Origin: Escherichia coli
Lineage (GTDB): Bacteria; Pseudomonadota; Gammaproteobacteria; Enterobacterales; Enterobacteriaceae
Length of the DNA: 64,000 bases
Reading direction: 5' to 3' (one strand)
NCBI RefSeq assembly: GCF_024502345.1
Contig: NZ_JALDNN010000001.1
The translations under genes and the position numbers were made by a program. Positions within the stretch are counted from its first letter, which is position 1; each line of letters begins with the position of its first letter. The notes beneath the pieces were generated by a model. It was not told where the DNA came from, ran no database searches, and worked only from the letters and a program-made list of their open reading frames with translations. Positions 5,448 through 6,233 of the stretch are shown piece by piece.

Positions 5448-5456
5448 ATGAAATCC
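5448..5456. repeat. Left copy of 9-bp target-site duplication ATGAAATCC flanking IS1
   Basis: Identical 9-mer directly abuts both IS1 ends. Confidence 0.85.
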
Positions 5457-5511
5457 GGTGATGCTGCCAACTTACTGATTTAGTGTATGATGGTGTTTTT
5501 GAGGTGCTCCA

Positions 5512-5787
5512 GTGGCTTCTGTTTCTATCAGCTGTCCCTCCTGTTCAGCTACTGACGGGGTGGTGCGTAACGGCAAAAGCACCGCCGGACATCAGCGCTA
5601 TCTCTGCTCTCACTGCCGTAAAACATGGCAACTGCAGTTCACTTACACCGCTTCTCAACCCGGTACGCACCAGAAAATCATTGATATGGCCATGAATGGC
5701 GTTGGATGCCGGGCAACCGCCCGCATTATGGGCGTTGGCCTCAACACGATTTTCCGCCATTTAAAAAACTCAGGCCGCAGTCGGTAA
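5512..5787 (+). CDS. insA: IS1 InsA
   Basis: 91-aa [27 protein letters not shown]... with zinc-finger Cys pattern. Confidence 0.9.
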
Positions 5788-6209
5788 CCTCGCGCATACA
5801 GCCGGGCAGTGACGTCATCGTCTGCGCGGAAATGGACGAACAGTGGGGATACGTCGGGGCTAAATCGCGCCAGCGCTGGCTGTTTTACGCGTATGACAGG
5901 CTCCGGAAGACGGTTGTTGCGCACGTATTCGGTGAACGCACTATGGCGACGCTGGGGCGTCTTATGAGCCTGCTGTCACCCTTTGACGTGGTGATATGGA
6001 TGACGGATGGCTGGCCGCTGTATGAATCCCGCCTGAAGGGAAAGCTGCACGTAATCAGCAAGCGATATACGCAGCGAATTGAGCGGCATAACCTGAATCT
6101 GAGGCAGCACCTGGCACGGCTGGGACGGAAGTCGCTGTCGTTCTCAAAATCGGTGGAGCTGCATGACAAAGTCATCGGGCATTATCTGAACATAAAACAC
6201 TATCAATAA
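5706..6209 (+). CDS. insB: IS1 InsB reading frame (expressed as InsAB' by -1 frameshift)
   Basis: 167-aa ORF overlapping insA in the -1 frame; slippery TTAAAAAAC at the overlap. Confidence 0.85.
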
Positions 6210-6224
6210 GTTGGAGTCATTACC

Positions 6225-6233
6225 ATGAAATCC
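6225..6233. repeat. Right copy of 9-bp target-site duplication ATGAAATCC
   Basis: Matches 5448-5456 exactly. Confidence 0.85.

Follow-up and report, generated by a model that had tools for sequence, protein, structure and literature searches.

An IS1 copy in the spacer between narK and the narG control region of Escherichia coli, most likely a near-neutral insertion inherited within one lineage

The 64-kb stretch of E. coli DNA analysed here (hereafter the window) carries a complete IS1 between narK and narG. We estimate at roughly 85% the probability that this copy results from simple IS1 transposition into a spacer devoid of known function, and that it is most likely near-neutral and has become an inherited lineage marker. 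According to this model, the InsAB' transposase, produced by a -1 frameshift at the A6C motif, would have cut the target with a 9-bp stagger, and repair of the gaps would have duplicated the sequence ATGAAATCC. The element would have entered an AT-rich spacer of about 75 bp, sparing narK, the small RNA NarS and the narG promoter controlled by FNR, IHF and NarL, and would then have been transmitted within one gut E. coli lineage, which it marks. Since the landing place is the only function-free spacer, narK, NarS and the narG promoter would remain structurally intact.

IS1 occupies positions 5457-6224 (+ strand), exactly 768 bp. It is the single copy of its type and the only IS of any sort in the 64-kb window. 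Both ends are canonical: IRL (GGTGATGCTGCCAACTTACTGAT, 5457-5479, +) faces narG and IRR (GGTAATGACTCCAACTTATTGAT, 6202-6224, +) faces the narK terminator. These terminal inverted repeats of 23 nt are imperfect, 18 of the 23 positions being matched. The gene insA (5512-5787, +) encodes 91 aa with a zinc ribbon and an HTH, and the insB frame (5706-6209, +) is fused to it by -1 programmed frameshifting at the slippery A6C site (5763-5769, +), giving an uninterrupted frame of 232 aa for the InsAB' transposase (DDE_Tnp_IS1), which is intact. InsAB' scores 243.8 bits against the NCBIfam model NF033558 'IS1 family transposase' (cutoff 100). In Pfam it matches Zn_ribbon_InsA (PF03811) and DDE_Tnp_IS1 (PF03400) over the whole model, and HTH_Tnp_IS1 (PF12759) over 44 of 46 model positions.

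The closest known relatives are IS1B and IS1C of K-12, from which the window copy differs by 2 mismatches in 768, against 7 for IS1A. They display the same 768 bp, inverted repeats, insA/insB, A6C motif and 8-9-bp duplication (PMC12428005) and, beyond these two mismatches, the window copy is distinguished from them only by its chromosomal location. Copies 100% identical to it are found in many E. coli chromosomes and plasmids, with the PGAP label 'IS1B family'. All the tested defining features being present, the window element is assigned to the IS1 family. As far as can be read from the DNA, all sequence requirements for transposition are intact, and the copy may be able to transpose.

IS1 is flanked by two identical copies of ATGAAATCC, at 5448-5456 (narG -230 to -238) on the left and at 6225-6233 on the right, that is, a perfect 9-bp direct repeat. 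The repeat looks like 11 bp because the next two bases of the flank (GG) are equal to the first two of IRL. A 9-bp identity at exactly both IS1 ends would occur by chance with a probability of about 4e-6, and 8 or 9 bp is the expected length of an IS1 target duplication (PMC12428005). In MG1655 there is no IS1 here, the intergenic sequence aligning on both sides of the element with one GGATTTCAT. Of the 5,415 complete E. coli genomes that match the reconstructed empty site, 5,408 have it intact, the 9-mer being there once. The first-pass annotation of this DNA had proposed a complete 768-bp IS1 with inverted repeats, insA/insB and A6C, a perfect 9-bp duplication left by simple transposition, a location separating narK from the control region of narG, and the absence of the element from this place in K-12 MG1655. 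Each of these is borne out: all the parts of IS1 were located, the duplicated sequence is single-copy at the empty site, narK lies at 6331-7728 and the elements of the narG promoter at or below 5429.

The narK-narG intergenic region measures 392 bp, and the spacer of about 75 bp that hosts IS1, bounded by the narK/NarS terminator and by the outermost NarL heptamer, is its only part without known function. On one side lies narG (1418-5161, - strand; 1247 aa, intact), whose promoter contains the FNR box TTGATAACGATCAA at 5253-5266 (-). We take the centre of this box to be at -41.5, the textbook class II position, and narG +1 therefore falls at 5218. A search for NarL heptamers as TACYYMT retrieved TACCCCT at 5304-5310 (+, centre -89) and three distal motifs, all intact and on the - strand: TACCCAT at 5400-5406, TACTCCT at 5410-5416 (centre -195) and, outermost, TACCCAT at 5423-5429 (-205 to -211). 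NarL-P footprints at narG are centred at -89 and -195, and induction requires both (PMC4549865); the agreement of our heptamer centres with these published footprints makes the coordinate frame sound.

Relative to this frame, the centre of the FNR box is 197 bp from IRL and the outermost heptamer 18 bp from the duplication. A narG fragment from -223 to +70 works as a full-length, nitrate-inducible promoter (PMC9314961). Position -223 corresponds to 5441, which falls 7 bp short of the duplication start and 16 bp short of the end of IS1 (5457), and the duplication lies beyond this fragment, which stays contiguous. The narG promoter region is 98% identical to that of MG1655. The promoter is thus structurally intact with respect to the FNR site, the NarL sites and the -223 to +70 segment, in keeping with what had been suggested for the proximal control region at first reading; the distance of about 190 bp then proposed between IS1 and the FNR site also holds. 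The heptamer-like NarL pair noticed near IS1 on the same occasion is real (5400-5416), and the picture is refined by the third heptamer at 5423-5429, which is the one nearest to the insertion.

On the other side, the narK ORF (6331-7728, -) is intact. NarK is annotated as 463 aa in MG1655 and in public assemblies, the mechanically called ORF being 2 codons longer. Its intrinsic terminator (6282-6307, -; hairpin 6289-6307, T-run 6282-6288) is also intact; 57 bp separate it from IRR, and its identity with MG1655 is 100% over 101 bp. NarS is an sRNA derived from the narK 3'UTR with its 3' end at the narK terminator (PMC7038943). We considered whether IS1 breaks NarS or the narK 3'UTR and rejected this, although narS of MG1655 is annotated across this area: from the alignment to MG1655, NarS ends at the terminator T-run (6282), 57 bp before IS1. 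An Rfam scan of positions 4800-8300 gave no match to a NarS family and one chance lncRNA hit (E = 0.15). Beyond narK, narX is found at 8061-9857 (+). A few indels aside, the window and the MG1655 segment of about 1229 to 1284 kb are colinear. IS1 cuts none of the known cis elements of narK, NarS or narG.

The narK 3'UTR itself varies between strains. In MG1655, a 127-bp ERIC-like repeat stands directly after the narK stop (positions 2351-2477 of our MG1655 segment, L005), within the annotated narS; it is missing from the window (6325-6330) and from many other E. coli, so that the NarS precursor 3'UTR has here a short, Salmonella-like form. An insertion near the narK stop codon in E. coli has been noted previously (PMC7038943).

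How widespread is the insertion? The exact junction of the window is carried by none of 5,426 complete RefSeq E. coli genomes. Coverage of 80% or more was reached for the left-junction query in two of them and for the right-junction query in a single one, and these are without exception offset insertions. The exact left junction had no match among GTDB representative genomes either, and JGI metagenome contigs, scanned with a degenerate pattern for one or other IS1 end at most 30 bp from the distal NarL site, gave 0 matches. The exact NarG of the window is found in 30,027 blocks, with IS1 in none of the matches listed. Identity to the window does not go beyond 99.4-99.5% in the nearest complete genomes, none exceeding 99.5%; the source lineage therefore lies outside the 5,426-genome collection. 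This distance led us to consider a Shigella origin, against which speak the single IS of the window and its colinearity with MG1655.

This lineage was found by exact look-up of the YchO allele of the window. The right junction, IRR followed by ATGAAATCC with an identical IS1 end, recurs in at least 5 draft or gut-metagenome assemblies: the NCBI drafts GCA_050029375.1 and GCA_036619395.1 and the gut metagenomes ERZ920157, ERZ28663999 and ERZ27258762 (contigs L020-L023 and L026). These contigs are 99.8-99.97% identical to the window, over 13.7-13.8 kb in L020-L022 and over the first aligned block of about 9.4 kb in L023 and L026, and members of the lineage differ by 2-16 SNPs over the aligned 9-14 kb. 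Two more contigs, from GCA_054852445.1 and SRR21969523, end exactly at the junction. Three others (L025, L027 and L028) possess the same YchO in a more distant background without the junction, and L027 reads through the empty site. The insertion thus appears to be inherited within one E. coli lineage, the right, narK-side junction being what recurs, and to be neither a one-off event nor a species-wide ancestral feature. The first-pass annotation had taken the sharing of this IS1 by reference strains, as an ancestral feature, to count against its reading. The outcome is mixed: the site is without IS1 at this junction in every reference and complete genome, while within its own lineage the element is inherited.

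The same contigs bear on the trivial explanation that the IS1 repeat was misplaced between narK and narG during assembly. Multicopy IS1 does break short-read assemblies, as the contigs ending at the junction show. Yet the error-free duplication of 9 bp that occur only once at the empty site, and the independent assembly of the right junction in at least 5 other datasets, argue so strongly against an artefact that we give this explanation next to no weight.

The narK-narG region has received IS1 elsewhere in the species. Among 5,415 complete genomes, the 500-bp region is interrupted in seven, and all seven carry IS1 there; five were confirmed by sequence, and 23CRST027 and 23CRST031 were assigned from matching hit geometry. 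In MEC2025-PR, the element has the orientation of the window copy and is flanked by the duplication ATGGCTCTT, at window-equivalent positions 5438-5446 (-220 to -228). In P276M, it is again oriented as in the window, with the duplication AGTATGTTG at 6257-6265, 24-32 bp nearer narK. JX21CE8, ECNB21-M121, 23CRST027 and 23CRST031 share an IS1 in the opposite orientation with an 8-bp duplication, TGAAATCC, at 5449-5456. The two sequenced flanks in this JX21CE8-type group differ by 1 SNP in 2.4 kb, and its carriers are therefore one lineage. All these insertions resemble that of the window in occupying the same gap of about 75 bp, with 8- or 9-bp duplications and an intact promoter, and differ from it in offset (the JX21CE8-type copy being at the same site, inverted), isoform and background. 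Finally, FDAARGOS_943 carries an IS1A-type copy (L030, 3233-4000) inside the narG promoter itself, with the duplication CCCCTTTAG at 5306-5314 (-88 to -96). Here the intergenic region and element family are the same, but the insertion splits the promoter, whereas the window copy spares all sites: 777 bp are placed between the core promoter with its FNR site and the IHF site with the -195 NarL sites, and nitrate induction of narGHJI is predicted to be impaired in this strain.

The flanks differ by 1-1.6% between backgrounds and the IS1 isoforms differ too, so that the insertion events are independent. Four such events, including that of the window, fall within 51 bp of spacer, two of them sharing one cut position. 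These two, the window and JX21CE8-type copies, have duplications at 5448-5456 and 5449-5456, opposite orientations, 6 mismatches in IS1 and about 1% flank divergence. An in-place inversion linking them was rejected, because of the duplication lengths (9 versus 8 bp), the 6 positions that distinguish the elements and a flank divergence of about 1%.

Such clustering could suggest a true target hot spot, in which the structure or sequence of the spacer, pictured as AT-rich and perhaps bent or occupied by nucleoid proteins, would draw IS1 beyond mere permissiveness and without selection on narG. The shared cut position, reached in spite of different orientations, isoforms and backgrounds, would fit with this notion, as would the exclusive presence of IS1 in the seven interrupted genomes and the composition of the spacer (69% A+T versus 49% across the whole window). 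IS1 is said to prefer AT-rich targets, a piece of classical knowledge attributed to Zerbib et al. 1985. However, with one mismatch allowed, no IHF consensus was detected in the spacer, the only match adjoining the narK stop codon. Nor was a pseudo-IS1-end found at the target, its similarity to the IS1 ends, about 9/23 as judged by eye, being not above chance.

The numbers are also against it: with about 59,000 chromosomal IS1 places in the complete-genome collection, a rough expectation for a permissive region of 392 bp is 1-3 distinct IS1 events, close to the 5 observed. Control regions of equal size, three in all, were interrupted in 0 of 5,415 genomes (narX-narK), 14 of 5,423 (chaA-chaB) and 0 of 5,421 (pth-ychH), and a statistical hot spot is not demonstrable from 7 interrupted genomes set against 0, 14 and 0. 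We thus hold a genuine hot spot for possible but doubtful. The clustering is adequately explained by the permissiveness of the spacer together with the reported preference of IS1 for AT-rich DNA, and the enrichment is not exceptional.

Could the insertion nevertheless act on narG? An outward -35 is present in the inverted repeat of IS1, and an IS1 upstream of a gene can raise, lower or leave unchanged its expression depending on geometry (PMC8764528). Hybrid promoters form at IS1 ends when a -10 is suitably spaced (PMC8764528, PMC9330008); we looked for an outward -35 in the IS end followed, after 16-18 bp, by a good -10 in the flanking DNA. In the window, the -35-like TTGGCA of IRL (5470-5465, minus strand) has opposite it in the flank TTAAGA at 16 bp, TAAGAG at 17 bp and AAGAGC at 18 bp. 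As a -10, TAAGAG, judged by eye, keeps 3 of 6 positions and is without the final T, and a consensus scan for an outward sigma-70-like promoter from IS1 found none. As it stands, the sequence does not appear to offer an IS-generated hybrid promoter. IS1 has a weak promoter of its own, PIS1 (PMC12428005), and the promoter-like site of the element, CTGCCA-16-TATGAT (5464-5491, +), is inward and directed away from narG.

IHF binds IS1 ends, and its binding there could change the geometry of the DNA upstream of the IHF-dependent narG loop. As a whole, an outward promoter or bending from IS1 that would alter narG expression, as envisaged in the first-pass annotation, seems unlikely.

Insertions of IS1 have been described ahead of afaA, osmB and ugd in E. 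coli ST131 (PMC8764528), as have IS1 fusion promoters at blaTEM and acrEF (PMC9330008). As in the window, these are cases of IS1 upstream of a transcription unit with an outward -35. Their effects, however, need a well-placed -10 near the gene, whereas the window flank offers only TAAGAG, and the promoter downstream of the window junction, about 230 bp away, is complex and depends on activators. A literature search retrieved no relevant paper on IS1 at narK-narG.

An adaptive reading would nonetheless see in this IS1 a cis-regulatory mutation altering narGHJI expression and selected for it, hence the recurrent insertions; it might work through a hybrid or outward promoter, through bound IHF or H-NS changing the upstream loop, or through insulation from narK read-through. 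The four independent events in 51 bp, two of them at one nucleotide, could reflect such selection, the insertion has persisted while the lineage diversified, and the outward -35 makes hybrid promoters possible (PMC8764528, PMC9330008). But the occurrence of both orientations and of varied offsets leaves no common promoter geometry, the candidate -10 is poor and no outward promoter emerged from the scan. Moreover, the site is outside the functionally sufficient -223 fragment (PMC9314961), the chaA-chaB control is interrupted in twice as many genomes (14 versus 7), and most interrupted genomes are IS1-rich (29-38 IS1 places versus a median of 10). Taken together, this makes an adaptive origin improbable in our eyes. 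That IS1 would land recurrently in the spacer, and that such insertions would be selected for retuning nitrate reductase A in the gut, seems to us more improbable still; if it were true, the lineage-fixed copy of the window would be one of several parallel regulatory adaptations. The near-neutral insertion remains our preferred reading: IS1 is most likely neutral or nearly so at this place, and we infer no change in narG or narK expression.

Other features of the window also vary with respect to MG1655. The autotransporter adhesin gene ycgV (29268-32153, +) has an in-frame stop at 30381-30383, codon 372, which is Trp in MG1655, and is probably a pseudogene in the window lineage. The ldr/rdl toxin-antisense units (15059-16060) are two, versus three in MG1655 (ldrABC), and one metagenome contig of the lineage has a single unit. 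Short-read and metagenome contigs of the lineage (L020-L029) typically stop at the IS1 junction (6225) and at the ldr repeats. Two blocks are missing from MG1655: one of 6.8 kb (39519-46323), encoding a FecCD/BtuC-type permease, an ABC ATPase, a methyltransferase-like protein, ModD and a TonB-dependent receptor, and one of 1.9 kb (51100-53030), encoding a 478-aa leucine-rich-repeat protein weakly similar to the SlrP/SspH2 repeats.

The arrival of a textbook element at a new, probably neutral site belongs to routine strain variation, and the current view of IS1 or of narG control is not challenged by this insertion. It provides on the other hand a clean marker for a clade present in several drafts and in human gut metagenomes, and it explains the breaks of short-read contigs just downstream of narK in this clade. 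Moreover, the four spacer insertions, in both orientations, together with the promoter copy of FDAARGOS_943 constitute an allele series, well suited to testing the role of the DNA upstream of -211 in the IHF/NarL-looped narG promoter.
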